From NCBI GenBank assembly GCA_013815775.1, contig JACDFN010000003.1, positions 14,354 through 78,353 of the forward strand: a stretch of 64,000 nucleotides of DNA, written 5' to 3'. The notes beneath the pieces were generated by a model. The model saw nothing but the letters and a program-made list of their open reading frames with translations. It was not told the DNA's origin and made no database searches. The DNA is from Candidatus Saccharimonadota bacterium (lineage in GTDB: Bacteria; Patescibacteriota; Saccharimonadia; Saccharimonadales; UBA10212). This document shows positions 9,806 through 61,740 of this stretch, in pieces; the first letter of the stretch is position 1, and every line of letters begins with the position of its first letter. The position numbers were made by a program, and so were the translations under genes.

Positions 9806-9837
9806 GTAAAAAAGACCAGAAAAATTAAAAAGGCTTA

Positions 9838-9846
9838 TGCTATAAT
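9838..9846 (+). promoter_or_regulatory. Extended -10 box (TGcTATAAT) upstream of pilM
   Basis: gcttaTGcTATAAT lies 19 nt before the ATG at 9866. The same gcttatgctata word recurs at 18320-18331. Confidence 0.35.
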
Positions 9847-9865
9847 CTGAAATAATGGAATAAAC

Positions 9866-14361: not shown

Positions 14362-14399
14362 AACGAAGTTATTATGAAAAAAGAAAGGGTGGCAAAGAC

Positions 14400-15467: not shown

Positions 15468-15474
15468 TTGAGAC

Positions 15475-16704
15475 ATGCTAACTTATACTTATACGGCCAG
15501 GGAAAGCTCCACCGGGAAGAAAATAAAAGCTGAGCTTCAAGCCGAATCTGAAAAAGCAGCAGCAAAGTTGCTCAAGGAACGCGGCCTACAAGCCCTTGAA
15601 ATAACCCAAGAGGGAGGTAAGAAGAGTCCCTTAGACAAGATTTTAAAGCGAATCCCTACTAAAGAAAAAGTTATATTCTCGCGCCAGCTCTCAACCCTTA
15701 TAAACGCCGGTCTACCCATAGTTCAGAGCCTTCAAAACGTTAGCGAACAGACTAGCAATAAGACTTTCAGTTCAATTATAAATAGCATTATTCAAGATGT
15801 TGAAGCGGGCTCATCTTTTTCAGTAGCGCTCTCAAAATATCCAAAGGTTTTCAACAATGTATATATTAGCCTTGTAGCCGCCGGAGAAACTTCTGGTACT
15901 TTGGACGTGTCACTTGAGCGATTAGCGAATCAGCAGGAAAAAGATGCTGACATCATCTCAAAAGTCCGAGGGGCCATGATTTATCCAATCATAGTTATGG
16001 TTGTAATGATGGCTGTGGTAATTTTCATGTTGACGACAGTTTTGCCTCAGGTGCAAGTTCTCTACGATGGCTTGCCTGGGGCAGAGTTACCGCTACTTAC
16101 TAAAGTTTTGCTTTCCATGTCTAACGCATTAATCAACTACTGGTGGATTTTTATAGTCATCTTGGTTTTCTTTGCCTTCATGTTCAGCAGGTGGGCACGT
16201 ACCGGACCAGGGAAGCAAGTGATAGACCAGTTAAAGATGACAATGTGGCCGGTAGGACCGTTGTTTGTCAAACTTTACATGGCTCGTTTTTCTAGGACAG
16301 GAGCCACCTTAGTGGGTAGCGGGGTTCCCCTGCTTCAAATGCTAGGTATTACTGCCGAGGCCGTTAACAACGTTCATATAGCTTCTTCCATAAATAAGGC
16401 TGCTGAGAAAGTTAAAGGCGGTAAATCTTTATCGGAAGGTCTTATGGGCGAGCCGCACTTTCCCGATCTAGTGCCTAATATGATTCGGATAGGCGAGCAA
16501 TCGGGCGCGATGGAAGCTATGATGGGCAAAAGCGCCGACTATTACGAGAAAGAAGTAGATAACCAAATTAAAGCAATATCGACACTCGTAGAGCCGGTAT
16601 TGATGATCATAATGGGCATAGTTGCCTTTCTGATAGTAGCTGCTGTTCTACTGCCTATATACGGCCTTGTAGGACATGTGGGTGTCAGCGGAGTAGGGAG
16701 GTAA
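15475..16704 (+). CDS. pilC: Type IV pilus platform protein PilC (GspF family)
   Basis: 409 aa with two GspF-type repeats (FSRQLSTLINAGLPI and FSRTGATLVGSGVPL) and three TM segments. Confidence 0.9.
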   Translation: MLTYTYTARESSTGKKIKAELQAESEKAAAKLLKERGLQALEITQEGGKKSPLDKILKRIPTKEKVIFSRQLSTLINAGLPIVQSLQNVSEQTSNKTFSSIINSIIQDVEAGSSFSVALSKYPKVFNNVYISLVAAGETSGTLDVSLERLANQQEKDADIISKVRGAMIYPIIVMVVMMAVVIFMLTTVLPQVQVLYDGLPGAELPLLTKVLLSMSNALINYWWIFIVILVFFAFMFSRWARTGPGKQVIDQLKMTMWPVGPLFVKLYMARFSRTGATLVGSGVPLLQMLGITAEAVNNVHIASSINKAAEKVKGGKSLSEGLMGEPHFPDLVPNMIRIGEQSGAMEAMMGKSADYYEKEVDNQIKAISTLVEPVLMIIMGIVAFLIVAAVLLPIYGLVGHVGVSGVGR

Positions 16705-36690: not shown

Positions 36691-37094
36691 GGGTTGGACT
36701 AACGATTGGTCGCCTGTAGTTTTTACTATAGGAGGAAAGTCCGGGCAGCACAGAGCATAGCAGTTGCTAACGGCAACCGGGAGAAATCCTAGGGAAAGTG
36801 CCACAGAAACGACACAACCAGCTCCCTTACAGGGAACTGGAACTGGTGAAACGAGTGGGCCCAGCTTGTCTGGGATAACGAGTTCTAGCGCCTAAATGGC
36901 GCGTTTACTCAAAGGTAAAAGCCCACAGTCCGCCGTGGTGACACGGCGGAGAGGTAAACCCTGCTTGCTGCAAGGAAACAGTCTACAAGAGCTGCTCGCT
37001 ACGACTGTTGTTTAACCGCTCGATCCGTAGGGCAACTTGCGGGCTAGATAGATGGCCAAATAAAACAGAACCCGGCTTACGGTTAGTCCACTCA
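36691..37094 (+). ncRNA. rnpB: RNase P RNA (bacterial type A)
   Basis: Conserved GGAGGAAAGTCCGGGC and ACAGAACCCGGCTTA. P1 pairs TGGACTAAC (36695-36703) with GTTAGTCCA (37082-37090). Confidence 0.95.
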
Positions 37095-37096
37095 TT

Positions 37097-37744: not shown

Positions 37745-38249
37745 TCGTACTCCTTATAACAAAAGTTAGCTGTCGGCCAGCGAATTGTGGTGGTTGATCC
37801 ACAGCAATTGCTTCTCCAAGATCATCTTGGATCCTGTCTGCCAACTTATAGCCTAACTCTTTATGGGCTAACTCACGTCCCCGATAGACTACAGCAATTT
37901 TAACTTTGTGTCCAGCCTCTAAGAAGCCCGTAACCTTACGTAGTTTTACCTCTAAGTCGTGGGCGCCAATCTTAAGTCCAACACGCATTTGCTTCATTTC
38001 CAAGGGCTTGGAATGTTTTCGGGTTTTCTGAAGTTGCTTAGTGCGTTGGTAATTGTATTTCCCCCAGTCTACTATCTTAGCCACAGGAGGGTTAGCGTCA
38101 GGTGAAACCTCGACTAGGTCCATTTCGGCTAACGCAGCTGCTTCTAGGGCCTCAGCACGGCTTAAGATACCCATTTGTCGACCGTCATCACCAACTACAC
38201 GCAGCTGCGGCGCCCTAATTGCGTTGTTGATACGGGGGATCTTACTGAT
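37722..38249 (-). CDS. infC: Translation initiation factor IF-3, with a probable non-canonical ATC (AUC) start
   Basis: The track ORF starts at an internal Met (38174). The frame stays open upstream to TGA at 38265-38267 and encodes ISKIPRINNAIRAPQLRVVGDDGRQ, a typical IF-3 N-terminus. AGGAG lies 8 nt before the ATC at 38249. Confidence 0.8.
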   Translation of the reverse strand: MSKIPRINNAIRAPQLRVVGDDGRQMGILSRAEALEAAALAEMDLVEVSPDANPPVAKIVDWGKYNYQRTKQLQKTRKHSKPLEMKQMRVGLKIGAHDLEVKLRKVTGFLEAGHKVKIAVVYRGRELAHKELGYKLADRIQDDLGEAIAVDQPPQFAGRQLTFVIRSTNAKVKNP

Positions 38250-38318
38250 CGTTGCTTCTCCTAGTCATCTGTACTTAAGTTGATAATAACAGAGGGGCCT
38301 CTTAGCTTCAAGGTGTTT

Positions 38319-39788
38319 TTAGGTTGTTGATTTATGTCTATACTGCAATGCTTCACCTATGTGCTCTGGTTTTATATTTAACTCGGAACCCAAGTCGGCT
38401 ATTGTTCTTGCTACTTTTACAGTCCTTACATAGGCTCGTGCAGAGATAGCCAATTTCATCGAGGCATTATCTAAAAATTCCTTTGCAGAGGGGGATAGGT
38501 TAGCATAAGTGCGTATTTCTTTATTACTCATCGAACCGTTATACCTTGCTGGGCCAAGCCTCTGATACTGCAACTTATAAGCTGTTTCGACGCGGTGCTT
38601 CACTAACTCTGACTCCGCTTTGACGACGGAGTGCTTTAGTAAATTTCTGTGGTCTATATTATGCACCGGAAGATGGAGATCTATACGGTCTAAGATCGGA
38701 CCAGAAACCCTCTTTTGGTATTTGTATATTGCCGCCGCAGAGCAAATGCATGTCTTCAATGTTCCATAGAAGCCGCATGGGCAGGGGTTTTTAGTTGCCA
38801 CTAGTATAAAATCAGCTGGATAAGAAGCAGAATCTTTGACTCGGACAATATTCACCCTACCATCTTCGAGGGGTTGTCTAAGGGCTTCTAAGCAGGCCTG
38901 ATTAAACTCCGGAAGCTCATCTAAAAACAGAACGCCTCTATGAGCTAAGCTTGCTTCTCCTGGTTTTGGCGTAGATCCACCGCCAATGAGGGCAATAGCA
39001 CTGGCGCTATGATGAGGCGACCTAAACGGTCTAATGCTAACAATCTTACCGAAATTACCACTTCCCAAACTGTGGAGGTGTGTCACCTCCAATAGTTCAC
39101 TGGGCGACAGGTCTGGTAAAATCCCGCACATGGCTTTTGCGAGCATAGTTTTTCCGGTTCCTGGAGGGCCATCCAGTAAGATGTTGTGGTGGCCGGCAGC
39201 AGCAATCTCTAAAGCACGCTTAGCTATAGGCTGCCCGATTATTTCAGAGAAGTCGATAAAATCAGATTTTGAAGATTGAACTATCGATCGTCCTTTGCCC
39301 GTAGATATAGACCTTAATGGCAATGTACCGGTAAGATCGAGGTAAGCGTCCCTTAGGCTTGCCGCCGCTTTGATCTCAATATCAGGAATGATTAATGCCT
39401 GCTCAAGGTTGGACAGGGGAATATAGAACTTATTAAAGTTCATTTTTTTGGCCGAAAGAATCTTTCCCACCAAACCTCGAACAGGGTTTAGTAAACCCTC
39501 CAGACTAAGTTCGCCTAAGAAAATGTAGTCTTTAGAAGCTTGGTAATTAATTTGATTTGATCTAGATAAAACAGCAACGGCCATGGGCAAATCTAGGCTA
39601 GTGGACCCTTTTGGCACATCGGCAGGTGAGAGGTTAATAGTTACTCTCTTGCGCGGAAATTCAATAGTTGAATTAGCAAACCCGGCACGCAGGCGTTCTC
39701 TGGCTTCCTCAACCGCCTTAGATGCATCACCAATGATAACTATTGACGGTAGACCATTGCTAATGTGGCATTCTACGTCTACTAGCAT
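38319..39788 (-). CDS. comM: ComM/YifB-family Mg-chelatase-like AAA+ protein
   Basis: Walker A LDGPPGTGKTM, VLFLDELPEF and a C-terminal ChlI-like domain. The frame stays open 17 codons upstream (to the TAG stop at 39840-39842; ..ILSIKSIIDYSGFQS), so a non-ATG start near 39833 is possible. Confidence 0.85.
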   Translation of the reverse strand: MLVDVECHISNGLPSIVIIGDASKAVEEARERLRAGFANSTIEFPRKRVTINLSPADVPKGSTSLDLPMAVAVLSRSNQINYQASKDYIFLGELSLEGLLNPVRGLVGKILSAKKMNFNKFYIPLSNLEQALIIPDIEIKAAASLRDAYLDLTGTLPLRSISTGKGRSIVQSSKSDFIDFSEIIGQPIAKRALEIAAAGHHNILLDGPPGTGKTMLAKAMCGILPDLSPSELLEVTHLHSLGSGNFGKIVSIRPFRSPHHSASAIALIGGGSTPKPGEASLAHRGVLFLDELPEFNQACLEALRQPLEDGRVNIVRVKDSASYPADFILVATKNPCPCGFYGTLKTCICSAAAIYKYQKRVSGPILDRIDLHLPVHNIDHRNLLKHSVVKAESELVKHRVETAYKLQYQRLGPARYNGSMSNKEIRTYANLSPSAKEFLDNASMKLAISARAYVRTVKVARTIADLGSELNIKPEHIGEALQYRHKSTT

Positions 39789-39963
39789 TGACTGAAAACC
39801 TGAATAATCTATGATACTTTTTATGCTTAAAATGCATTTTTTCTAGTCCCCCCGTCTTACTTAATAGAAGAAAAAAGTAGTAACCGAGACCCTTTCATAA
39901 AAGGCTATCGGTCTTATTTCTAGAGCGGTAATAAAGTAAGTTCGTAGATGGTGCTCCAATATT

Positions 39964-39998
39964 TAAAAACACCCGGCTGTTTTTGCCGGGTGTTTTTA
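39964..39998. terminator. Bidirectional intrinsic-terminator-like hairpin at the left end of the AT-rich tract
   Basis: AAAAA-ACACCCGGC-tgttttt-GCCGGGTGT-TTTTT. Confidence 0.6.
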
Positions 39999-41150
39999 TA
40001 AGTTTTGCTATTGGTTTGGGGGTTTGGAGTTTTTTATGTTTGGAAGGTTTTGGATGGAACAACGGCTTGCGAGAAGCCGTTGTTACAGATCAGTTTTTGT
40101 TTTGAGCACTTTTTTTATTCAAGCGCCACCCTCATCTTATAAAGTACCAATTAGGGTGTCAATACGATTATGAAAAAAAGCTGTGTATAACTCAAACATG
40201 AGTTGAGCAGCTTAGTCTATAAGCCAAGCTTAAATGCTCATATAACGTCATATAAACTGACCTTTATTGTTGTATTCAAGAACAAACAACTTTAATTTCG
40301 CAACTCAACTAGCATTTTTTATACCAACCTATGTTTGGATTTAAAATAAAATTCGAGCGAGCAGAATAAAGGCTTAATAGATTATTTAAGTTACTTGGTC
40401 TAACATTAACTAAAATGGCACTCAGAACTTAGCTAGCGTCATTTTTTAATGCCTCCATTGCTATTAAGATGATGTCTTGTCCGGTCTACAGGGCGTATGG
40501 ATTTTCATAATAACATCAGACTAGGCCTTATAAGGAGTTAAAGGTCTTAATAGATTTCAAATTAACTTCTTAATATAGGTGTTCAACAAAACTTAAAACA
40601 CCGAACAGGTACATTAACTTAGTCCTAATGGAAATTACGGCTTCGCTTATTAATTCATAAGCTCTAACCATCCTGGTAATTCGCGCATGCGGTTCTAGAC
40701 AGTAAATCCAAAAACATGTTATTTACTATTTTGAATAAAATTTTGTGCTTCATGTAAAGAAGGCGATATTAACTTAATATTTTTTTTGGTTTAACAAAAA
40801 TTTATTAATAACACGATCGCTATTGGCAACTAAGCCTAATGGTTTCTCAGTATCCTGTGTGGCTAAATAATGTGAAAGTTAGTTCGAAATTTAGAACTAA
40901 CGCAAACAATACATAGCGCATTATTTTTACTTTTAAAATGAAATTAAGACCTATTAAACTTTCCATAAAGCTGCAGCAGTAAGCTTCGAGCCGACCGAAA
41001 AAACACGGGTATTCCATAGAATAAAAGCGATCAAATAACGAACATAATATTTACAACTATGTGATATTTACTATGTTTTCAAAACAACATAAAATTTACA
41101 TTTGAGCTTTATTAAAACTGTAATGATGTAAAAATACTATCAATATATAC
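39999..41150. other. AT-rich tract (about 25-35 % G+C) with no ORFs
   Basis: No ORF of 60 aa or more in any frame between 39796 and 41345. Stops are dense in the one plus-strand frame I read through (40381-40620). Contains isolated hairpins at 40058-40084 and 40879-40902. Confidence 0.6.
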
Positions 41151-41179
41151 TTGACCTTTTAGCTATTGTTTGCTAGGAT
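41151..41179 (+). promoter_or_regulatory. Sigma70-like promoter for the 41.3-45.0 kb operon
   Basis: TTGACC (41151-41156), a 17-nt spacer, then TGcTAGGAT (-10 box at 41174-41179). Confidence 0.5.
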
Positions 41180-41185
41180 AATTTC

Positions 41186-41345
41186 AGTAAGTTAAAAAAT
41201 AAAAAGTTACTTACTAATAAGCGACCGGGAGGCGCTAGAATATCACTCTTCGGAAGAAGAGTGGTCAGTCAAGCCGTGGGACGGTAAGCGCTAAATAGTA
41301 ATATACAAAGGGCGCATTTACCGTCCAGGCTCCAAGCTCTACAAT
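41186..41345 (+). promoter_or_regulatory. Structured 5' leader (unknown cis-regulatory RNA candidate)
   Basis: Hairpin CACTCTTC-GGAA-GAAGAGTG (41244-41263; 8 bp with a GNRA loop). Hairpin GGACGGTAAGCGC...GCGCatTTACCGTCC (41279-41326; 13 bp). TGTGTG/CACACA arms bracket the ATG at 41352. Confidence 0.4.
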
Positions 41346-41696
41346 GTGTGCATGGACACACAAAGTAAAAACATTAAATTACCAATCGCTTCAGCAGTTG
41401 GTAGTTTTTTTTGTATGTTACTTTTGGCATTGTTTACAAATCCTTTACATAACATAATTTATGCATTGCTATTTTTTGCCGCTTTAACCATAACTCTTGT
41501 ATCGGTAGGTTATTTATCAGTTCTAACCTACCGGAACAGTTTAAGTGCAAAGAGTAGGTCGGTAGTTTTCATTATTAGTATTTCTATAACTCTACTACTA
41601 ATGCTCCGGAGTGCTGGTGCTCTAGGTTTGTTGGATACAGTAGCCTTATGTCTTTTAACGGTAGGTATGCTTTTCTATGTTACGAAAAGGACTTAA
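41346..41696 (+). CDS. Small polytopic membrane protein (probable start at ATG 41352)
   Basis: Three predicted TM helices. G+C is about 35 %. First gene after the structured leader. Confidence 0.5.
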   Translation: MCMDTQSKNIKLPIASAVGSFFCMLLLALFTNPLHNIIYALLFFAALTITLVSVGYLSVLTYRNSLSAKSRSVVFIISISITLLLMLRSAGALGLLDTVALCLLTVGMLFYVTKRT

Positions 41697-45053: not shown

Positions 45054-45614
45054 TTATTTCTTATGTAGTCTTTTTAACAATAGCTCTATAATCCATCCCG
45101 TACCGAATCCCGCTGCAAGCAAGAGGATAAACACACTGAAATTGTAATTATAACCATAGTGCTTAGTCAGATAGTAGTAGACTGTGCTACCTACTAACGC
45201 CATGATGCCACCGCCCAAAATACCAGATGGTCTTCCTATAGTTGTGGCAGTTATTTCGCTGGCTTTTTCTACTACTGGCTGATGCATAAACTTGCTTATG
45301 GGTTTCTGAAACGGGTTCAGATTTTTCTGCGCTCTGCCTAAAAGGCGATTATAGGCCATGGTTTTTAGTTCCTTGCTCACATAAGCCTGATCTGATAGCT
45401 GGGGTTGCTTTTCATCATCATCGATTATTATGTGTTCACTTTTCTCGGCTTCTTTATTGGCGGCCTCTCTTATAGATTCAATCTTGTGCTTATTTTCATG
45501 CACAGTACCTTGAATCTCGGGGGAGGTGTCTATTTTCTCCGAGCTATGATCGGGACCATGTTCTTCCGGGTGATAAATCTCTGCATTGCCAGGTAAGTTT
45601 AATTTTTCACTCAT
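45054..45614 (-). CDS. Membrane protein with an acidic N-terminal half and two C-terminal TM helices
   Basis: 186 aa. The start lies 1 nt after the stop of the upstream LPXTG gene, and a G6 tract serves as the SD. Confidence 0.5.
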   Translation of the reverse strand: MSEKLNLPGNAEIYHPEEHGPDHSSEKIDTSPEIQGTVHENKHKIESIREAANKEAEKSEHIIIDDDEKQPQLSDQAYVSKELKTMAYNRLLGRAQKNLNPFQKPISKFMHQPVVEKASEITATTIGRPSGILGGGIMALVGSTVYYYLTKHYGYNYNFSVFILLLAAGFGTGWIIELLLKRLHKK

Positions 45615-45615
45615 C

Positions 45616-47592
45616 CTACATCCCCCCGCCTAAAGTGTATTCGGCTTTTATAACTTCCAATTCACGGATCATGATTCTACTCCGAGCGAATAAATAGCCT
45701 GCAACTACTGCTACGGATCCTGCGATCGCTAAAGTGGTGCCGGGTCCAGTGTTGGGTAGGCTAGTAGAGGCGCTCTGCGCTACAGTCTTAACAATTGGAC
45801 AATCAACGCTCATTGTCACTTCGTTACCATAGTCATTAGATATGGCGCAGTTATAGTCAGGAGAAAGACTTGAGGGACTGTTGGTGGATGGAATTATCTC
45901 CTTAATCTTAACCCGAATGGTCTTTACTTCTGAACTGTTAGCTTTCAAATTCAGGGTAGTCCACTTGAGATGGTTCTGAGAATCAAGCACTAAGCCTTGA
46001 TTAGACAACTCTGAATGATCTATTAGCTCGGCATATTGCAAGACATCACCAAAGTAATCATCACCTTGGTAGTTTCGATAGTCACTGGATGTGACATTCT
46101 TTGTAGTTAATTTAAATTCTATAATGTCGCCGCTTTTCACTGAAGTCCCATCGGCATTACTAACCTTTTGTGTGACGTTTGTAACTGCTTTAGATAAATT
46201 TACTCTGGGTTCTTCAGCTATGATGACTTGAGTAGGGCAAGGACCAGTTTGTTGTGTTGGTCCTCCGTCGCTAGTAATTTCAGCGTATACCAATATTTTG
46301 TGGTTGCCAGCAGTTAGGTTGCTAATTTGTTTGTCGTAAGGAGTGGCAGAAGTATTATCGCGGTAGTCAAAGGTCCCGTTGCCATCAATATCGTAGAGAT
46401 AGCCAACGACCCTAGCTCCATTTTGGACGTATGCTTCAGTTCGAATAATTACTTCTCTGTTTGAACCGCTAGCCAAGGAGGTAGAAGCTACACAATACCC
46501 GCTTGGAGTAGCAGTTGTGGGGGGTGGCGGGTTTGGTGCAACAGTGGGGTTAGGGCTGGGTGTTGGGGTAGGTACCGGTGCAGGTGCAGGCGTGGGTTTA
46601 GGGGAGGTTTTGGGTAATGGCTCTCTTATAACAGTAATACAAGGAGCAGCCGATGATTTATTACCAGTTTGGGTTGAGCTAATGACAGCACTATTGCAAA
46701 TAATAGTATTATTGCGCGTATTTGCCCGAACCTTTACAGAAAGGTTACTTACGTACGGAGATGATCTATAGCCTAGCTCTCCGCTCCGCTTTATAGTCAA
46801 GGTATTTCCACTACGGCTCGATAAATCGTCTAAAGATACGAATTCAAAGTTAGGGTTTAGGTTATCAGTCAGCTTAAACCCGGTAGCCAGTGAATCCTCT
46901 CTCTCATTTTGGTACTCAATTCGGAATCTAACAACCTCACCAGGCTTAACTCTGGAAGCTGTTAGAAGCGTTTTATTAACAGTTAGTTTTGGCTTAGGAG
47001 GGGTGGGCAAATAAGGGCGATCAAATGTAGGATTACCGCAAGTCTGCAGTATCCAAAAACTTACTCCAAACTGGTTCTTACCTTGAAAGGCCGCATAACT
47101 ACTAGAGGGCCCAGTATCCCATGCCCTAAGTGGCCGCTGATAAACAATGTTGCCACTAGCGTTTACGGTTCGTTCTCCCCATTTTGTACTGCTGATTCCG
47201 AAAGATGTTAGCGGTAATCTACCGGTGCTCCACCAATTGCGGCTAGTCGATTTGATAGTAGCGTTAGGTTTCTCGCCGGGAATAGCCGCAATGTTAGCTC
47301 TCTTAATACCGAATTTTTCATAGATAGCTCGAATATTACCGGTGTTATTGTCCCAAGCTTGCAGCAAGCTAGATTTAGTAGTTATCCCGTTTATGATGTC
47401 ATTTGGGGAGGCAGCTAACGAATTCTGAGCAGGGTATTGTGCAGCAACAATCTGGACTAACAGGGATAGTATAACCATTATAAAGCCCAATCTTCGAAGT
47501 GCAGCTTCGCCTCGTAAACGATGCGAATAGAAGTTTATCTGTTCAACTAAACTGGGGTTAAATGGTAAATTTGCGAGTATTTTTTTGAACAT
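45616..47592 (-). CDS. LPXTG-anchored surface protein with DUF11-like repeat domains and a Pro/Thr-rich stalk
   Basis: N-terminal signal/anchor. VKPGEVVRFRIEYQN-type DUF11 motif. Linker PKPTPAPAPVPTPTPSPNPTVAPNPPPP. C-terminal LPNTG plus a hydrophobic stretch plus ARSR. Confidence 0.75.
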   Translation of the reverse strand: MFKKILANLPFNPSLVEQINFYSHRLRGEAALRRLGFIMVILSLLVQIVAAQYPAQNSLAASPNDIINGITTKSSLLQAWDNNTGNIRAIYEKFGIKRANIAAIPGEKPNATIKSTSRNWWSTGRLPLTSFGISSTKWGERTVNASGNIVYQRPLRAWDTGPSSSYAAFQGKNQFGVSFWILQTCGNPTFDRPYLPTPPKPKLTVNKTLLTASRVKPGEVVRFRIEYQNEREDSLATGFKLTDNLNPNFEFVSLDDLSSRSGNTLTIKRSGELGYRSSPYVSNLSVKVRANTRNNTIICNSAVISSTQTGNKSSAAPCITVIREPLPKTSPKPTPAPAPVPTPTPSPNPTVAPNPPPPTTATPSGYCVASTSLASGSNREVIIRTEAYVQNGARVVGYLYDIDGNGTFDYRDNTSATPYDKQISNLTAGNHKILVYAEITSDGGPTQQTGPCPTQVIIAEEPRVNLSKAVTNVTQKVSNADGTSVKSGDIIEFKLTTKNVTSSDYRNYQGDDYFGDVLQYAELIDHSELSNQGLVLDSQNHLKWTTLNLKANSSEVKTIRVKIKEIIPSTNSPSSLSPDYNCAISNDYGNEVTMSVDCPIVKTVAQSASTSLPNTGPGTTLAIAGSVAVVAGYLFARSRIMIRELEVIKAEYTLGGGM

Positions 47593-52503: not shown

Positions 52504-53974
<1,471 letters not shown>

Positions 53975-54134
53975 TAGGGAGAACACTAGCATCAATCGTG
54001 GCAACACATTGAGAGCTAGGTCGATATCGATAAACTTTTACCAGTACTGAAGAGTTTATTCTCCACTTCGGTGGACGATACACAGTACTAAAATATGACT
54101 GACGTTGAGATGCACTACTCAGAGTTTAATACTC

Positions 54135-54162
54135 AAAACCGCCTGTAAGGGCGGTTTTGTAG
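54135..54162 (+). terminator. Intrinsic terminator closing the 16S transcription unit
   Basis: AAAACCGCC-tgtaag-GGCGGTTTT followed by GT. Confidence 0.65.
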
Positions 54163-54227
54163 TTAACGACGCATCGTTTATAGATATAGCTATTGTCTTT
54201 TATCTCTACTTATGTCATAGTCTATAA

Positions 54228-55544
54228 ATGGAAAAAAGACAAAAAAATGAACAATCACTGCTAACGGGCAATCGGCGCGTTGGTTTTACTGATCTAGCTG
54301 AAGCTTTCCAACAATATCCTGAAAAAATCCGGGAAATACTTCAGCTTAGCCACACTCTGGACTTCTACCCCTATCGCAGTGGACTTTTCCCGGCTTCAGC
54401 TTTGCCTGGTGAACTGGGTGAAATAACCAGCATGGGTATGGCCTGGCTGCGCGATAGTGCTCATATAGCTGACGGTTTATGGCAAAGTGGCGATACAGAA
54501 AGTGCTACGGCTGCCGGCCGCGCTATTCTGGATATATTCAAAGACCAAAACACCATACACAAGATGGAAGGCATTATCAATGGTAGTCTCGACCCGAAAG
54601 ACCCGAATTCTCGCCCTCCAGTACGGGTTGACGGCGATACGCTTATTTATACTGGCTATAATGATGCTAATATTCAAAATGACTCGGTTGGATATTCGAT
54701 TTGGCTAGCTAGCCGATTAATTAAGAACGGGGAAATAAATACATCTGCCGATGATATCAATACACTAGCTTTGATAACTCGTTACCTAGGAGCAATCCGC
54801 TACTGGGAAGATGCCGATAGCGGCCATTGGGAGGAAACCCGTAAAGTTAACGCTTCCAGTATAGGCGTGGTTGTAGCCGGCCTTAAATCGACGAAAGAAT
54901 TGTTTGTTAGCCTGGGCTATAACCATAATTCTTTGGAGCTAACAGACCTTATTAATAAGGGAGCAGAGACTTTAAATCAGATCCTACCTTATGAATCGCC
55001 TGGACCGGGAGAACTTGAGCGTCGTTATGATTCAGCCTTACTGTTTTTGGTTGAGCCAATGAATGTTGTTAGTCCCGAACAGGCAAGAATGATCGTTGAC
55101 GACATAACGCGGCATATGGTGAGAGACATCGGTATTGCCCGTTATCCCAAAGATTCTTATTGGCACCCCGACTTTCGAGATGAAGTAAAGCTTGGTGAAC
55201 GAGCGACTTTCATCCCAGGTGCATTTGAAAAACGGGAAACCTTAGCTCAGGAAAACAATGAAGCCCAGTGGACTCTTTTCGACCCGCTACTTTCTGTCTA
55301 TTGGGGAAAGCAGTTTAAAGAGACAGGCAATACGAGTGCTCGGGAAAGGCAAATGTGGCACCTTAATCGCTCATTAGGTCAGTTAGTCTGCGGCGGTCCG
55401 GACGGACAATCGTTGCTATTGCCAGAAGCATACTTTTTGGAGAGAGGCCAATGGGTAGCTAATGACCACGTGCCATTGCTGTGGAGTCAGGCTAATTTGA
55501 TGCTAGCGCTTGATATGTTTGAGAAGACCTCGAGACAAGCCTAG
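54228..55544 (+). CDS. Glycoside hydrolase family 15-like (glucoamylase-type alpha/alpha-barrel) protein
   Basis: AWLRDSAHIA, GHWEETRKVNASSIG, YDSALLFL, and LPEAYF...HVPLLWSQANLMLAL. Confidence 0.55.
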   Translation: MEKRQKNEQSLLTGNRRVGFTDLAEAFQQYPEKIREILQLSHTLDFYPYRSGLFPASALPGELGEITSMGMAWLRDSAHIADGLWQSGDTESATAAGRAILDIFKDQNTIHKMEGIINGSLDPKDPNSRPPVRVDGDTLIYTGYNDANIQNDSVGYSIWLASRLIKNGEINTSADDINTLALITRYLGAIRYWEDADSGHWEETRKVNASSIGVVVAGLKSTKELFVSLGYNHNSLELTDLINKGAETLNQILPYESPGPGELERRYDSALLFLVEPMNVVSPEQARMIVDDITRHMVRDIGIARYPKDSYWHPDFRDEVKLGERATFIPGAFEKRETLAQENNEAQWTLFDPLLSVYWGKQFKETGNTSARERQMWHLNRSLGQLVCGGPDGQSLLLPEAYFLERGQWVANDHVPLLWSQANLMLALDMFEKTSRQA

Positions 55545-55592
55545 CGGTTATTGCTGTTGCTTTTTTAAACCTTTTATGCTAATATAGATACA

Positions 55593-55886
55593 ATGACAAA
55601 AATAAAAAAAACACCAGAAGAAGCAGAAGAAAAGTTAGCAATGCAACCCCCTGAAACGGAGTATGTTTCAGAGAGCTACGTAATTAACTTGCCTGCTACC
55701 AACGAGCATCTAGGAGACCCTTGGAGCCTGCGTAAATATGCATCTGAGGTGATGAACAGGGAAATTGGCGACGAGGTACAGCTAACATCTCTTAGAATTA
55801 AAAGACCTGGTTTAACCTCTCGTGGCACCGCTAAGCTTTTTAGTCGAACACCTAGGGTTAGGCTTTATGTTACGACAAAGTTCTAA
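55593..55886 (+). CDS. Hypothetical protein
   Basis: 97-aa ORF. No family recognised. Confidence 0.35.
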   Translation: MTKIKKTPEEAEEKLAMQPPETEYVSESYVINLPATNEHLGDPWSLRKYASEVMNREIGDEVQLTSLRIKRPGLTSRGTAKLFSRTPRVRLYVTTKF

Positions 55887-56086
55887 AACATAGGCACCAA
55901 AAGAAACGCCATATTGGCCGCTATGACTACGAACCCGACAATCTTAATTACATAGGGGTTGTCTAGATCTCTGATAATGCCGGTGCCTGCGTATTGTCCC
56001 AGCCAGCGGACGACTTCATGACTCCACTTAATCAGGGCAAACCCAACCGCGATACCTAGTAATGATTCCATTAATGACATAACCAT
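55883..56086 (-). CDS. Small two-TM membrane protein
   Basis: 67-aa ORF with two hydrophobic helices. Its 3' end overlaps the convergent 55593 ORF by 4 nt. Confidence 0.35.
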   Translation of the reverse strand: MVMSLMESLLGIAVGFALIKWSHEVVRWLGQYAGTGIIRDLDNPYVIKIVGFVVIAANMAFLLVPMF

Positions 56087-56118
56087 TTATTCTCACTGGT
56101 AGTATAAACCATCAAAGC

Positions 56119-56159
56119 TTGAGTTTTAAGGAGTTTTTACGTACAATACCTCTGTTCTT
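56119..56159 (+). promoter_or_regulatory. Promoter for the tRNA-Ile/tRNA-Ala unit
   Basis: TTGAGT (56119-56124), a 17-nt spacer, then TACAAT (56142-56147), followed by ACCTCTGTTCTT. Confidence 0.5.
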
Positions 56160-56196
56160 TTACCCAATAATAAATTAAAAATATAGGTTGTTTTGA

Positions 56197-56273
56197 GGGC
56201 TTGTAGCTCAGTTGGTTAGAGCGCGTCACTGATAATGACGAGGTCCCAGGTTCAAGTCCTGGCAAGCCCACCA
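56197..56273 (+). tRNA. tRNA-Ile (anticodon GAT)
   Basis: GGGCTTGTAGCTCAGTTGGTTAGAGCGCGTCACTGATAATGACGAGGTCCCAGGTTCAAGTCCTGGCAAGCCCACCA. Confidence 0.92.
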
Positions 56274-56279
56274 ATCACA

Positions 56280-56474
56280 ATGACAGATTACGGGAAGGAT
56301 AAGACGCTAAAATTAGCCGCAGCGACTGTTACGGCAATCTTTGCAGTTGGTCTAGGCGGAGCCCTGATAGTGGAGTCAGCTCTGGGTCTTATTATCCTAG
56401 TCAGTCTAGAAGCCGTGCTCTTAATAGGAGCCGGAATAGTACTGAACCGTATGTCAAAAGATAAGGGGCATTAG
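56280..56474 (+). CDS. Possible 64-aa two-TM peptide encoded in the tRNA-Ile/tRNA-Ala spacer
   Basis: The ATG lies 7 nt after tRNA-Ile. Strongly hydrophobic sequence (AAATVTAIFAVGLGGALIVESALGLIILVSLEAVLLIGAGIVL). The stop falls inside the first 10 nt of tRNA-Ala. No SD is visible. Confidence 0.25.
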   Translation: MTDYGKDKTLKLAAATVTAIFAVGLGGALIVESALGLIILVSLEAVLLIGAGIVLNRMSKDKGH

Positions 56475-56541
56475 CTCAGTTGGCTAGAGCACCACATTTG
56501 CAATGTGGGGGTCATCGGTTCGAGTCCGATATGCTCCACCA
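56465..56541 (+). tRNA. tRNA-Ala (anticodon TGC)
   Basis: GGGGCATTAGCTCAGTTGGCTAGAGCACCACATTTGCAATGTGGGGGTCATCGGTTCGAGTCCGATATGCTCCACCA. The G3:U70 pair is present. Confidence 0.92.
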
Positions 56542-56569
56542 AGATACCTTATCGATCTGATATTAAATT

Positions 56570-56610
56570 CCCCCGGGTCGCTCGCTTGCGAGCAACCCGG
56601 GGGTTTTGTT
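56570..56610. terminator. GC-rich terminator hairpin after tRNA-Ala, overlapping the stop of the antisense hydrolase gene
   Basis: CCCCCGGGT-cgctcgcttgcgagca-ACCCGGGGG-TTTTGTT. Confidence 0.7.
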
Positions 56611-57727
56611 ATCCGCAGTTTGCAATGGCGCCCGATTGGGCATCCACTACTGCCTGGCGGAAGGCGGGCAGTGACGACTTCGGAGTGGCGTCAGCATAGA
56701 AGGATCCGGACTGCCAAGCGGACAAGTCGCTCTCGTCACTGGTGTGAAAGAACGAGGTACCGATGACAGTCGGCTGGCAGGCGGCCAGCTCCAGAGCCTG
56801 GCGGTAGAACAACGCCTGAGTAGCTTCGCTAACCGCTTTAGTCGAGGGAGGCTCTGCGGAGTGGTACAAAGACCGCTTGTGAGGCGGAATAATGCTGTCC
56901 ACTCCGTATTCCATGTAGGCGATGGGTAACCTCGAGCCGGCTTGGGCTGTGCGGTTGAAAGCCTCCTCGAGAGCCGCTACCAGCTTCTTGTAGTCGGCGA
57001 AGCCGACATAGGCGCCCTCATGCAAAGCTTCCGGTGACTCGCTGGAGTTTACCCCGTAAGGATGGTACGAAAGAACGTCCATGAGGGGCTTTGTGCGTCC
57101 ACTTTCACGGAAGGCTTTGCCCATTTCCTTGATGTACTCAACCGAGCCACGTGAGGCAAGCCCGCCCCCGTAGACCCGGATGTCGGCCGAAATAGCCTTT
57201 AGCTCGTCATAAGCTTGGGCTAGCACCGTCACGTAGTTCTTGGCGGCGTCTTTTTGGGGCCGCCAGAACGACGGGGAATTGACTTCGTTTCCGATGACGA
57301 AGTCCTTAACTCCGTGAACTAACGTGAGTCCTGTTTTGTCTGTAGTACCTCCTTGCAGAGAGTGGGCCAGGGTGGACAGGAATGTCCGGTACTGGCGCCG
57401 CTGACCGGGTCCGATAGGCGCGCGACCGTACGGTGATACCGACAGAATCATGCGGATGCCGGATAGTTCTGCGGCTGCTACTGAGTTTCTGATGCTTTGA
57501 ACGTCCTGAGGGGACGGCCAAGGCTGGCCTGGTGACCAGGGAATGATCTGCCTGACGACTGTAAAGCCGGCCAGGGAAGTGAGCCTCATCTTCGCGTAAG
57601 CAACTTGAAGATCAGGTTGGAACGCTGAATTCGAAGCCACACCCACCCACTTGGGCGGTGCTGCCTCCGATGACTTTGTTCCCCCCGCTAGCAGCATAAG
57701 GAACGCTACGAGCAGGAATTTCGTCAT
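56609..57727 (-). CDS. Secreted TIM-barrel glycoside-hydrolase-like protein (clan GH-A-type motifs)
   Basis: Signal peptide MTKFLLVAFLMLLAGGTKSSEA/AP. GNEVN (acid/base NE) and AYMEYG (nucleophile Glu) motifs. SD GGAGAGAGG. G+C is about 60 %. Confidence 0.45.
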   Translation of the reverse strand: MTKFLLVAFLMLLAGGTKSSEAAPPKWVGVASNSAFQPDLQVAYAKMRLTSLAGFTVVRQIIPWSPGQPWPSPQDVQSIRNSVAAAELSGIRMILSVSPYGRAPIGPGQRRQYRTFLSTLAHSLQGGTTDKTGLTLVHGVKDFVIGNEVNSPSFWRPQKDAAKNYVTVLAQAYDELKAISADIRVYGGGLASRGSVEYIKEMGKAFRESGRTKPLMDVLSYHPYGVNSSESPEALHEGAYVGFADYKKLVAALEEAFNRTAQAGSRLPIAYMEYGVDSIIPPHKRSLYHSAEPPSTKAVSEATQALFYRQALELAACQPTVIGTSFFHTSDESDLSAWQSGSFYADATPKSSLPAFRQAVVDAQSGAIANCG

Positions 57728-57865
57728 TATCTACACCTCTCTCCGTAGGCAGGAATATCTACGCTACTGCAACTGTGTGTGAAGCAGTTAGGCTAGAGTA
57801 TACATGCAAAAGCTTTAAAAGTTAGAGATTTAACACAAAAAACAGGTGCCAAAGCGTATACTTTT

Positions 57866-57910
57866 CTACATCAGTTTACGATTGACTACCCCTGTTATAA
57901 TTGTTAAGAT
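57866..57910 (+). promoter_or_regulatory. 23S-5S rRNA promoter
   Basis: CTACATCA-N8-TTGACTACCCCTG with the -35 box at 57882-57887, a 17-nt spacer, then TAAGAT (57905-57910). Confidence 0.55.
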
Positions 57911-58430
57911 ATTAAGGTTGTTTGAGTACGGCCAGTCGATGAACGCCGACATAGCGCGCGTTTTCTGGGCTTACTCAAACTCTTTAAGTACAATCTGTCG
58001 CGTTTAGTGGTGGATAAAGTAGGCCTGTATCTTAAAAACTAGGGTAGACGTGCATTAGTGAAGTGCACGTTTTAATTTAGCAAATGACAAACGGCAATTG
58101 GTGATTAACCAATAGCTAGTCAATTGCACTTGACACACCCTTCATCTTCGGATGAAAGGTGTAATCGTAAAAAGTTACTCAAGCGCGCATAAAGGATGCC
58201 TTGACGTAAGACACCGAGGAAGGACGTAGTCGGCTGCGATAAGCCGCGGGGAGCTGCCAAACAAGCTTTGAACCGTGGATGTCCGAATGGGGAAACCTCA
58301 CTAGAGTCATATCTAGTGGCTACCGTCTGAATATATAGGACGGATAAGCGGTAAGCTGGGGAACTGAAACATCTTAGTACCCAGAGGAAAGGAAAGTAAA
58401 CAACGAATCCCGTAGTAGTGGCGAGCGAAC

Positions 58431-58625
58431 CGGGACTAGCTCAAACCTTAACCATTTCCATCTATTTATTTAGGTGGATAAGTTGGTAGACGAAAATGTT
58501 TAAGGGGTTGTGACAAGTAATTAACCAGTACGGAGCCCTGAGAATTTCTCAGATTTCCGTACTGATAGCAGGCTCTACCAATGGTCTGCATAAGGTAAAA
58601 AATTTGCGATGCGAGCAGAAGCTTC
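58431..58625 (+). other. 23S domain I expansion segment (about 145 nt extra)
   Basis: About 194 nt lie between the conserved GCGAGCGAAC and CTGGAAAGG, against about 47 nt in E. coli as I recall it. Contains helix CAGTACGGA...TCCGTACTG enclosing CTGAGA/TCTCAG. Confidence 0.7.
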
Positions 58626-58792
58626 TGGAAAGGGGCGCCATAGACCGTGAAAGCCGGGTATGCCAAGTGTTGCAAACCTTATTATTATTAGGCTATAAGA
58701 CTTGTCTTATAGTGTGTCGAGTAGGACGGGGCACGTGAAATCCTGTCTGAAACTGGGGGGTCCACCCTCCAAAGCTAAATATGTCTTACGAT

Positions 58793-58823
<31 letters not shown>

Positions 58824-60036
58824 TAAAAGAACCCCGGATAGGGGAGTGAAATAGAGCCTGAAATTATGCGCGTACAAGGAGTCGGAGCTAGATTTAGTCT
58901 AGTGACGGCGTGCTTTTTGTAGAACGATCCAGCGAGTTATTTTGCAGCGCAAGCTTAAGCCATTTGGCGGAGGCGTAGTGAAAGCGAGCCTTAATAGGGC
59001 GACAAGTGTTGCAAAGTAGACCCGAAACCAGGTGACCTAACCATGGGCAGGCTGAAGCGTGGGTAAAACTACGTGGAGGGCCGAACCGTAGCGAGTTGCA
59101 AAACGCCCGGATGACTTGTGGTTAGAGGTGAAATGCCAATCGAACCTGGAGATAGCTGGTTCTCCTCGAAATAGCTTTAGGGCTAGCGTCGTGTGGTAGC
59201 TGTGTGGGGTAGAGCTCTGTTTTGGAATGGGGCCCGTAAGGGTATCCACCCTTGACAAACTACGAATACGCACAGTGGTATCACGGCAGTTAGAACGTGG
59301 GGGCTAAGCTCCACGCTCGAAAGGGAAACAGCCCAGATCGCCAGCTAAGGTCCCTAAATATACACTCAGTGGAAAACGAAGTGGGATTTCTTCGACAATG
59401 AGGATGTTGGCTTAGAAGCAGCCATTCATTTAAAGAGTGCGTAACAGCTCACTCATCAAGAGATCCTGCGCGGAAAATGTAACGGGGCTAAAGTGTATTA
59501 CCGAAGCTGCGAATGCTGCTATAAATTTATTTGTAGCAGCGTGGTAGAGGAGCGTTGATATTGCATTGAAGTCAGACCGGGAGGTCTGGTGGAGCGTTAT
59601 CAAGTGAGAATGCTGGAATGAGTAACCACAAGAAGGGTGAGAATCCCTTCCACCGAAAGAGCAAGGTTTCCTGGGCCATGATAATCATCCCAGGGTTAGT
59701 CGGTCCTAAGCCGAGGCGAGTAGCGTAGGCGATGGACAACGGGTTAATAATCCCGTACCGGTAATATATTGTTTCAAGATGCGCGGCATGGTAGCAGAAG
59801 CGGATTCATGGTTATATCCGTCTAACTGGTCTAACGGGCCAGGAATGAGACACCTGAATAAGGTGAATTTCTGTGAGAGTACTGACTAGAAAAGTCTTGA
59901 TACTTATGTATGTTGCCGACCGTACCGCAAACCGACACAGGTGCTCAGGTCGAGAAGACCAAGGTGTACGAGTGAATCTTCGTTAAGGAACTCGGCAATA
60001 CAGCGACCGTAACTTAGGGATAAGGTCTGCCTGGGT

Positions 60037-60174
60037 ATGCCACAATGTTCCAAAAACATGAGAAAAACCTAGGTTTTTCTCATCGCGCCGGCAAAATGGA
60101 ATACATTTTGTCGGGTTGCTCTCTTTCTGAGAAGAAGAGGAGCAAAAACCCAATTTTTGGGATGTTGTGGCATA
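60037..60174 (+). other. 23S expansion segment at the helix-63-equivalent position (about 100 nt extra)
   Basis: Closed by ATGCCACAA/TTGTGGCAT. Contains a perfect 26-nt palindrome at 60058-60083 and at least two more hairpins. No ORF. Confidence 0.7.
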
Positions 60175-60468
60175 TCTAGGCCGCAGCTAAAGAACCCATG
60201 CAACTGTTTACCAAAAACACAGGTCTCTGCTAACACGAAAGTGGATGTATAGGGGCTGACTCCTGCCCGGTGCTGGAAGGTTAAGGGGAAGGCTTTACGG
60301 CTTGAACTTAAGCCCCAGTGAACGGCGGCGGTAACTATAACCGTCCTAAGGTAGCGAAATTCCTTGTCAGGTAAGTTCTGACCCGCACGAATGGAGTAAT
60401 GATATGGGTACTGTCTCAACGAAGAGCTCGGTGAAAGTGCATTGACGGTAAAGATGCCGTCTGTCCGC

Positions 60469-60500
<32 letters not shown>

Positions 60501-60861
60501 ACAGTTTGGCATTGAATCGGGTTGTAACATGTGTAGGATAGGTGGGAGGCTTTGAAGCCAGAGCGCTAGCTCTGGTGGAGCCAACGGTGAAATACCACCC
60601 TTGTTACAATCTTATTCTTACATTAACCGTTATCCGGTTAGTGGACAGTGTCTGATGGGTAGTTTAACTGGGGCGGTTGCCTCCTAAAGAGTAGCGGAGG
60701 CGTTCAAAGGTTGGCTAGATACGGATGGAAATCGTATCGGTAGTGTATACGCATAAGCCAGCTTGACTGTGAGGCCTACAAGCCAAGCAGGCACGAAAGT
60801 GGGAGTAAGTGATCCGCTGTCCAAACCATTTTTGGTTTACGAATGTGGTATCGGCAGCGCA

Positions 60862-60894
<33 letters not shown>

Positions 60895-60926
60895 TATAGC
60901 GCCCAATAGTTCACATAGACGGCGCT

Positions 60927-60961
<35 letters not shown>

Positions 60962-60975
60962 AGGAGGAGCATCTT

Positions 60976-61046
<71 letters not shown>

Positions 61047-61622
61047 TTATATCCGCTGTGGACGTCAGGAAATTTGAGAGGATTTGTCGCTAGTACGAGA
61101 GGACCGCGATGAACGCACCGCTGGTGTACCGGTTGTTCTACCAAGAGCATCGCCGGGTAGCTATAGTGCGGACCAGATAAGCGCTGAAAGCATATTAAGC
61201 GCGAAACTGACCTCAAGATTAGATTTCCCCAGAGACCCCTGAAAGACTATCAGGTTGATAGGCGCAAGGTGTAAGTGCGGTAACGCATTCAGCCGAAGCG
61301 TACTAATAGGTCCATTGACTTTTTACGAGTCCTCACAGACGAGCCATGAGGCTTTACTTGCGAGAGTCTGTGAGGGCTGGTGCATTGACTAGCTATTGGT
61401 AGTCAGCAAATAGCTGATTACCGGTCATTTGTTAAATATCTAACTGTTATTTGGCATCAAAGGATGTTACATTTACATCGTACTCGTGCATTAATAATTC
61501 ATTGGCGTCGACTTCCGCTACTTTTCTTAACAAGGGAAAGGTAGTAGCCGCAGTCTGCTTTAGCAAATTCGGATTTATTCCGAAAGCGGCGTTGAAGGAA
61601 AACCGTAGGTTGTCCTTCAAGG

Positions 61623-61740
61623 TAGTCGGTGCCCATGGCGCTAGGGAAACACCTGTTCCCATCCCGAACACAGCAGTTAAGCCTAGCAGCGGTTACAATA
61701 CTTGGGTTTAACCCTGGGAAAATAGCACGGTGCCGAACTA
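61623..61740 (+). rRNA. rrf: 5S ribosomal RNA
   Basis: GTCGGTGCCCATGGCGCTAGGGAAACACCTGTTCCCATCCCGAACACAGCAGTTAAGC...GGTGCCGAACTA. Confidence 0.93.

Follow-up and report, generated by a model that had tools for sequence, protein, structure and literature searches.

Two conserved RNA elements, a predicted small RNA gene and a structured leader, at the edges of an AT-rich tract between comM and a coupling-ATPase operon in Saccharibacteria

Protein-sponge small RNAs (sRNAs), such as CrcZ and CrcY of Pseudomonas and, by analogy, CsrB and RsmZ, carry repeated single-stranded A/C-rich motifs. RsaE/RoxS and the streptococcal csRNAs are C-rich regulatory sRNAs that pair with Shine-Dalgarno sequences. 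Promoters can also be controlled by a single DnaA box, as at mioC and nrdAB of E. coli and sda of B. subtilis. Saccharibacteria live as obligate epibionts; their genomes measure about 1 Mb and encode few recognizable regulators, and some of the cultivated members can now be manipulated genetically. Here, we analyze a tract of AT-rich DNA from a member of this group. It occupies positions 39790-41150 of a 64,000-nucleotide (nt) stretch of Candidatus Saccharimonadota contig JACDFN010000003.1, hereafter called the window, and separates comM from an operon that encodes a coupling ATPase. The tract appears to serve as a common upstream region for two core chromosomal transcription units that diverge from it, with conserved and functional edges and a middle of lineage-specific filler, a reading to which we assign a probability of about 0.72. 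The anatomy itself, two new conserved RNA elements separated by filler, is well supported and very probable. The left element is a predicted stand-alone sRNA gene and the right element a predicted structured leader of the ATPase operon; the functions suggested for both are drawn from conservation and sequence.

The tract had been described as a desert without open reading frames (ORFs). No ORF of 60 amino acids (aa) or more is indeed present between comM (38319-39788, minus strand) and position 41346, the longest being 55-56 aa. It is the lowest-GC 1.36-kb stretch in the window (32.4 % against a mean of 44.7 %, standard deviation 2.9), but the G+C content of 23-28 % claimed for it was too low. 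Computed values are 32.6 % for 39790-41150 and 31.0 % for 40196-41150, and only single 200-nt windows fall to 24-27.5 %. An alignment of the gap from six loci resolved it into two strongly conserved edge blocks and an unconserved middle, a three-part plan seen in more than 120 syntenic Saccharibacteria loci. Among the features pointed out by the original prediction, the hairpin with an 11-bp stem (40058-40084), a weaker inverted repeat around 40879-40902, and two DnaA-box-like 9-mers with one mismatch (40182-40190 and 40858-40866) are all present. So are the repeated words ATTAACTT (40561, 40613 and 40768, three of its eight copies in the window) and CTTAATAGATT (40373 and 40546). These features differ greatly in weight. 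The terminator near the comM end, the 11-bp hairpin and the first DnaA-like box all keep their positions across more than 100 related loci, far beyond chance, whereas the short repeated words are weak and not conserved among relatives.

The host belongs to the Saccharimonadales (Saccharibacteria, candidate phyla radiation (CPR)), and the closest relatives of its ComM, at 66-71 % identity, come from metagenome-assembled genomes labelled Saccharimonadales or Saccharibacteria. To the left of the tract lie rplT, infC and comM on the minus strand, with the RNase P RNA beyond. To the right lie genes for a 116-aa membrane protein, a 142-aa protein and a 960-aa ATPase related to the TrwB/VirD4/TraD coupling proteins, followed by a 186-aa ORF and a DUF11 surface protein, and then by gyrB, gyrA and an rRNA operon. 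The gene order rplT-rpmI-infC-(comM)-gap-small ORFs-ATPase-gyrB is retained in related loci L001-L007 and in more than 100 metagenome loci. In the genome loci L001-L005, comM, an ORF-free gap of 0.9-1.4 kb, the small ORFs, the ATPase gene and gyrB follow in the same order. When metagenomes were scanned with the hairpin core, at least 120 stretches matched; in nearly all of the 119 unique instances among the matches listed, comM or infC lies downstream of the sRNA and the ATPase operon lies divergently upstream.

The predicted sRNA is encoded on the minus strand (39960..40127) and would be about 166 nt long. A promoter scan places its promoter at 40134..40162 on the same strand, with the -35 hexamer TTGACA (40162-40157), a 17-nt spacer and the -10 hexamer TAAGAT (40139-40134). 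This near-consensus promoter, predicted to be of the sigma-70 type, is found in 103 of 112 unique loci as TTGAC(A/G/T), a spacer of 17-18 nt and TAnnnT (TAAGAT in 78), and it ends 5-7 nt ahead of the first hairpin. That hairpin, P1 (40126-40106, minus), pairs GCGCUU with AAGUGC and is followed by a single-stranded linker, UCAAAACAAAAAC (40105-40093), whose general form is UCAAAA(A)CAAAAAC. The second hairpin, P2 (40084-40058), is the invariant 11-bp stem-loop AACAACGGCUU-CUCGC-AAGCCGUUGUU. A G-poor, CA-rich tail (40057-39999) then leads to a strong intrinsic terminator (39998-39964). This last feature is a 14-bp perfect hairpin with A/T runs that had been called bidirectional; the hairpin stands, and we read it as the terminator of the minus-strand sRNA. 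Of 109 loci, 87 have a terminator by a strict rule, and imperfect stems can be seen by eye in most of the remainder. The tails are variable in sequence and length (40-110 nt across loci), with an overall composition of 51 % A, 26 % C, 7 % G and 16 % U.

Conservation and folding both argue for a functional RNA at the left edge. The sRNA folds with a minimum free energy (MFE) of -49.8 kcal/mol, which corresponds to z = -7.5 relative to shuffles, and the covariance model R1 has a single match in the window at 92 bits. Its 5' domain is almost invariant, whereas ComM drops to 31-70 % identity; the 29-nt core of P2 is identical even in L007, whose ComM is only 48 % identical. P1 shows compensatory double changes from GC to AU and from CG to UA. 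The only variable pair of P2 (58/72) is GC in 67 and CG in 3 of 70 aligned sequences, with no mismatch. An outer helix that extends P2 has clear covariation in about a quarter of the loci; it is not universal and is absent from the window. The element thus has its own promoter and its own Rho-independent terminator, both conserved in position, and its conservation exceeds that of the neighbouring non-coding DNA and is independent of the downstream gene. No match to the R1 model was found in other CPR classes.

The 27-bp palindrome at 40058-40084 could instead be a DNA operator for a dimeric protein rather than an RNA hairpin. It is perfect and invariant, and the symmetric G/C swap would preserve the symmetry of the DNA as well as it preserves pairing in RNA. 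The palindrome nevertheless sits within a unit bounded by a promoter and a terminator, and the covarying flanks extend the helix in about a quarter of the loci. In L006, the R1 model detects a divergent sRNA homologue upstream of comM: the CUCGC loop is kept and G-U pairs maintain the stem, which breaks the symmetry of the DNA. An RNA hairpin is therefore favoured over a DNA palindrome, and we regard the operator as quite improbable.

A different alternative concerns what the left RNA acts on. It could be a cis-acting leader or attenuator of comM or of infC-rpmI-rplT, comparable to the L20 leader of Firmicutes. The RNA always lies directly upstream of, and in the same orientation as, comM or infC, it ends in a terminator, and in L007 and L092 just about 25 nt separate that terminator from the comM start. 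On the other side, infC has a conserved promoter of its own downstream of the sRNA terminator. In the window this promoter is TTGAAG-17-TGTTATTAT (38311-38283, minus strand), TG-extended and conserved, and the infC promoter CTGTTATAAT likewise precedes infC in the loci that lack comM. The left RNA is unchanged in about 20 such loci. With 7 % G, its tail is too depleted of this base to pair with the 5' arm of the terminator as an antiterminator. Neither the L20_leader model (RF00558) nor any other ribosomal leader of Rfam was matched across 39600-41600 at E values up to 10. The RNA also shares no 8-mer with the 23S rRNA of the window. A cis-acting leader at this edge is thus unlikely, and a stand-alone sRNA gene remains the preferred reading. 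Two specific forms of the alternative were tried and rejected. An L20-type attenuator of infC-rpmI-rplT conflicts with the separate infC promoter, the retention of the RNA without comM, the G-depleted tail and the missing model match. Mimicry of rRNA as at the L20 site was rejected as well, with no 8-mer in common and only trivial local alignments to the 23S rRNA.

The DNA on the comM side of the sRNA has peculiarities of its own. The comM upstream region (39789..39963, minus strand) is variable among relatives, at about 20 to 190 nt. Within it, 39795-39824 still codes for the conserved N-terminal extension IKSIIDYSG of ComM. The ComM of relatives begins 17 codons further upstream (MTKG-IKSIIDYSGT...), and the IKSIIDYSG codons of the window are in frame. 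Over the extension (39789-39845, minus), however, none of the start codons ATG, GTG and TTG occurs in the window ahead of an in-frame TAG (39843-39845); an ATG at 39836-39838 is one out of frame for ComM, and there are 8 extra bases here relative to the relatives. The 5' end of comM in the window therefore has either a frameshift or indel, or else a non-canonical start. A promoter-like site on the plus strand at 39788-39815 (10 of 12 positions) was treated as a chance occurrence because it overlaps the comM coding sequence and its -35 is not conserved. Further downstream, in the region 38175-38320 (minus strand), infC apparently starts with ATC, near 38237, instead of AUG; an AGGAG Shine-Dalgarno sequence precedes this codon. 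In L006, the interval from the sRNA terminator to comM (9480-9900) contains on the opposite strand a sequence that resembles the 3' end of a transfer-messenger RNA or tRNA (TGGTGGAGCTGCGGGGAATCGCACCCCGG).

The sRNA promoter is accompanied by a DnaA-box-type 9-mer. In the window it is TTATACACA (consensus TTATNCACA; 40182..40190, minus strand) and lies 19 nt upstream of the -35 hexamer. About 90 of 95 loci carry it in constant orientation at -107 to -126 relative to the hairpin. Variation is limited to position 5, where A and G occur and C or T are rare; the classical TTATNCACA consensus is degenerate at this same position. The density of the box is 1.57 per kb between the two RNAs compared with 0.015 per kb in the flanks. 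There is one conserved box per locus, and the second DnaA-like 9-mer of the window (40858-40866) is not conserved. One box per locus is the arrangement of a regulated promoter, not of an origin, and a TTATNCACA-type 9-mer at a conserved place beside a promoter is what DnaA-regulated promoters have. Transcription of the sRNA may accordingly come under the influence of DnaA.

The same box, together with the AT-rich and ORF-free character of the tract, its repeated words and the proximity of gyrB and gyrA, might suggest a chromosomal or element-borne replication origin or iteron region, with the AT-rich DNA as the site of unwinding. The original prediction had listed this among its explanations. 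The box that is conserved is a single perfect TTATNCACA per locus. Sites with one mismatch number 16 in the window (2 of them in the tract) against 14.8 expected, and the 64 kb contain 3 exact boxes where 2.1 are expected; a one-mismatch count at chance level means that there is no cluster of DnaA boxes. Repeat searches gave no direct-repeat family beyond 2-3 copies (11-34 nt, 63-93 % identity), and a search for tandem arrays with TRF detected only the terminator and no iteron array of about 17-22 bp repeats. Cumulative GC skew, a check that had been proposed and was run within the 64 kb, climbs over 23-64 kb and thus rises through the site with no minimum at 40 kb, and the ORFs on either side are mostly on the plus strand with no switch of orientation. 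Neither the tested ORFs of the window nor the syntenic Saccharibacteria loci yielded dnaA, and a tblastn search for it over the collected loci gave its sole match in an unrelated Magasanikbacteria locus. The AT-rich part is unconserved and measures about 100 nt in many relatives. None of the marks of oriC, namely a cluster of DnaA boxes, a switch of skew or orientation, and a conserved AT-rich unwinding element beside dnaA or dnaN, is therefore seen here.

The proposal that the tract adjoins an integrated element did not hold either. The ATPase operon is syntenic with gyrB and with comM/infC in more than 100 loci and is thus core DNA. Neither RNA is present in 2.9 million viral contigs (IMG/VR). 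The origin reading is largely refuted and extremely improbable, and the integrated-element reading is rejected; the shared upstream region of two core transcription units is the preferred reading. The variable part of the neighbourhood is confined to the pair formed by the 186-aa ORF and a 658-aa surface protein with DUF11 and isopeptide domains (45054-47592), located between the ATPase gene and gyrB. The pair is absent from L001-L005 and present in L007, L081, L093, L104, L130, L139-L141, L158, L178 and L196; the ATPase module itself does not behave as an integrated element.

The original prediction missed the second conserved element (41151-41333). This right element begins with a promoter on the plus strand (41151..41179), found by the same kind of scan, with the -35 hexamer TTGACC (41151-41156), a 17-nt spacer and the TG-extended -10 hexamer TAGGAT (41174-41179). 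All six aligned sequences have its TTGAC, as do nearly all loci. The promoter would drive a structured 5' leader RNA (41186..41333, plus strand) that precedes the operon for the membrane protein, the small protein and the coupling ATPase. The leader is about 150-250 nt long across loci. Its first helix, P1 (41186-41215), has an A-rich loop that is the counterpart of CAAAAACAAAAAC and equals CAAAAACAAAAAC in most loci. A variable hairpin (41220-41236) and helix P2 (41242-41265) follow; P2 pairs CGCUC with GAGCG, and the window carries the compensated form CACUC...GAGUG. The junction GGUCAGUCAA (41263-41272) is invariant, and a long helix, P3 (41273-41331), closes the structure, with GGCUCC at 41328-41333.

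Covariation in the leader is extensive. RNAalifold identified 9-10 pairs with compensatory changes, one of them being GC in 33 sequences and AU in 28. Overall, 97.7 % of cells pair, compared with 33-50 % when the partners are slid, and there are 98 double-change cells against 29.7 +/- 6.2 in shuffles, a number reached by 0 of 500. The window sequence folds with an MFE of -54.2 kcal/mol (z = -5.2). The covariance model R2 finds exactly one match per locus, always ahead of the same operon, and its match in the window is at 41241-41336 with 86.8 bits. As in known cis-regulatory leaders, a conserved structured domain with covariation is thus located in a 5' untranslated region.

In 39 of 76 loci, a terminator hairpin lies within 120 nt after the leader when a strict rule is used, and in the examples that were read it immediately precedes the ribosome-binding site. 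The predicted leader and terminator of about half of the relatives together have the layout of an attenuator or riboswitch. The leader would then control read-through or translation of the ATPase operon through the binding of a factor. The start of the operon has a distinct appearance in the clade of the window, whose start region has no clear Shine-Dalgarno sequence. A TACAAT hexamer (41340-41345) precedes the probable ATG start at 41352 of the 116-aa membrane-protein ORF (41340..41354 in all, plus strand), and TAYAAT is found 7-9 nt ahead of the start codon in the window and in L001-L005. This hexamer may serve as the -10 element for a leaderless mRNA.

A further element lies upstream of the leader promoter (41105..41150, plus strand). 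It has the form CTGTA..TGT-N-ACA.. and is conserved within the clades with long spacers. It was seen by eye only, and a loose TGT-N6-14-ACA pattern occurs in 28 of 77 sequences. It is possibly an operator, which we put forward as a weak claim. The long-spacer clades have a conserved CTGTA..TTGT-N7-10-ACAA..TAG ahead of the leader promoter, and the compact loci carry GCTTATGGCTA instead.

The two RNA elements are linked by a shared 13-mer. Across 900 kb of Saccharibacteria loci, and with up to one mismatch allowed, the copies of CAAAAACAAAAAC number 103 in the sRNA linker, 64 in the P1 loop of the leader and 15 elsewhere; the 13-mer is predicted to be single-stranded in both RNAs. Because an almost unique single-stranded 13-mer is found in both, the sRNA may bind the factor of the leader. 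A common binding factor is suggested by this sequence likeness and is the weakest step of the explanation. If it exists, the sRNA could titrate the factor away from the leader in the manner of a protein-sponge sRNA. An extended form of this idea would see a phylum-wide, DnaA-controlled sRNA as a decoy that couples the state of replication or growth to the operon of a VirD4/TrwB-like translocase next to comM, with the invariant 5' domain and the G-depleted tail of the sRNA binding the leader's factor through CAAAAACAAAAAC. We consider this speculative and on balance unlikely. If true, uptake or transfer of DNA in these genome-reduced epibionts would be governed by a compact regulatory switch at this locus.

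Between the two RNA elements and their promoters lies an AT-rich spacer (40196..41100, no strand assigned) of about 950 nt, with about 31 % GC and no conservation. Comparison with 200 loci and with the window itself by blastn and tblastx found no similarity, the spacer had no match in phage and plasmid collections, and its stop-free segments had none in Pfam. The stop-free runs are of chance length (P about 0.2). Local folding in sliding 120-nt windows gave z-scores mostly between +1 and -2.6, the most negative being near the 40879 hairpin. Checks of conservation, similarity, coding and local folding thus detected no function. The length of the equivalent spacer in other loci varies continuously between about 0 and 1400 nt, with many relatives at about 100 nt, and in L007 the conserved blocks are only about 130 nt apart. 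Equivalent spacers are usually about 10 GC points below their flanks and usually ORF-free, and sometimes they hold unrelated genes, including those for SmpB, a methyltransferase-like protein and others. In L153, for instance, the spacer between the two RNAs codes for an SmpB-like protein. We favour a reading of the spacer as a gap prone to indels, flanked by two promoters that fire outward, in which AT-rich DNA and the occasional gene accumulate.

Alternatively, a foreign or accessory gene might have been inserted and then decayed, leaving the central 950 nt as its remnant. Decayed foreign DNA had been offered as an explanation of the whole tract; the claim is relevant to this part alone, and gene remnants were sought and not found. 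Unrelated ORFs in the same gap of other lineages, a spacer GC about 13 points under the genome average and the highly variable gap length all fit such an origin. The searches of the loci, phages, plasmids and Pfam yielded nothing to confirm it, and ORF-free gaps of 400-1000 nt are found in many loci, which argues against a decayed insertion. Neither residual protein similarity nor an excess of open frame, as a pseudogene would leave, was seen, although large protein databases were not searched. The remnant is thus conceivable but doubtful.

One long non-coding RNA across the AT-rich kilobase, on either strand, would also account for a long ORF-free tract, and the original prediction had such an RNA end at the 39964 terminator. 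A minus-strand RNA does end there, but it is short (about 166 nt) and does not extend over the AT-rich kilobase. A long RNA is favoured by the fold of the plus strand over the whole spacer (z = -5.3, with 20 shuffles only). The spacer, however, has no sequence conservation and local z-scores near zero, it is missing from many relatives, and the conserved promoters at its edges fire outward, away from it. A long RNA of this kind is very improbable, and we retain the reading of two conserved edges with filler between them.

Several points weigh against that reading and the functions attached to it. Transcription and the transcript ends are deduced from the conservation of promoters and terminators alone, and the binding of DnaA to the box is predicted from the consensus alone. 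L006 has no DnaA-type box. The covariation of the sRNA is thin, since its 5' domain is almost invariant; it amounts to 8 double-change cells, and the P2 sequences were collected by searching for exact matches. The left RNA could double as a comM leader in some compact loci, L007 and L092 among them, given the distance of about 25 nt from its terminator to the comM start. On the right, no post-leader terminator is present in the window or in L001-L004. Both window copies of the 13-mer are degraded, the sRNA having lost one A and the leader loop being UUAAAAAAUAAAAAG. As for the middle, many lineages with very compact genomes retain 400-1000 nt of ORF-free DNA here, for which filler is a poor explanation. 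The plus-strand z-score given above was obtained for the whole 955-nt spacer (40196-41150); the minus strand gave -2.2. The plus-strand value may reflect the small number of shuffles.

Elsewhere in the window, the rRNA operon (52504-61738) is unusual in that two ORFs lie among its RNA genes. The first, of 438 aa (54228-55544), matches Glyco_hydro_15 weakly and separates the 16S rRNA and tRNA-Ile genes; the second, of 372 aa (56609-57727, minus strand), has no Pfam match and is located between tRNA-Ala and the 23S rRNA. The 23S rRNA is 3160 nt long, with large insertions in domain I. The RNase P RNA (36694-37095, class A, 225.7 bits) has a 62-nt insertion where the consensus of the model has 7 nt. 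A cluster resembling a type IV pilus or type II secretion system (12568-16704) includes a T2SSE ATPase (12568-14361) and a T2SSF protein (15475-16704).

The locus therefore presents two RNA elements that are conserved about as tightly as housekeeping RNAs. One is accompanied by a DnaA-type box, and the other stands before a conserved coupling-ATPase operon near comM, so that they provide handles for the study of regulation in Saccharibacteria. A practical caution also follows: an AT-rich gap with a DnaA box should not be annotated as an origin. Searches of Rfam 15 with the window and nine other loci, a check that had been suggested and was made at gathering and relaxed thresholds, gave nothing relevant, and keyword and exact-sequence searches of the literature found no description of either RNA. 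A 2022 preprint on the TM7x transcriptome states that no validated small RNAs existed for that organism.

How the two elements compare with described systems can be judged feature by feature. The L20 leader (RF00558) resembles the sRNA in its position relative to the infC operon and in ending at a terminator. It differs in several respects: at the present locus, infC has its own promoter after the terminator, Rfam is not matched, an antiterminator is impossible, and comM usually stands between the RNA and infC. The resemblance to RsaE/RoxS and the csRNAs lies in a similar size and terminator and in tails that contain CTCC in 27 of 87 and CCTCC in 18 of 87 loci. Unlike in those sRNAs, the C-rich motif is not universal (the window has CUCC but no CCUCC), and the conserved part of the RNA is the 5' domain and not the C-rich part.

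Like CrcZ and CrcY, the predicted sRNA is a stand-alone unit with its own promoter and intrinsic terminator and with a long unstructured region that is A/C-rich and G-poor, and it has a short single-stranded motif in common with a leader that is predicted to be regulated. Unlike these RNAs and CsrB/RsmZ, it matches no Rfam family, has one copy of the 13-mer instead of an array, and carries an invariant structured 5' domain that they do not have. With mioC, nrdAB and sda it shares a single TTATNCACA-type 9-mer close upstream of a promoter, with variation confined to position 5. In the present case, what would be regulated is an sRNA, and the arrangement is unconnected with an origin. The right element resembles riboswitches and ribosomal leaders in its covarying helices, its invariant junction and its single position before one operon, as well as, for about half of the loci, in a terminator immediately ahead of the ribosome-binding site. 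It differs from the known ones in that it matches no Rfam family and that the clade of the window lacks the terminator. Both RNAs are new families of familiar kinds, the one a predicted sRNA that ends in a terminator and the other a structured 5' leader.

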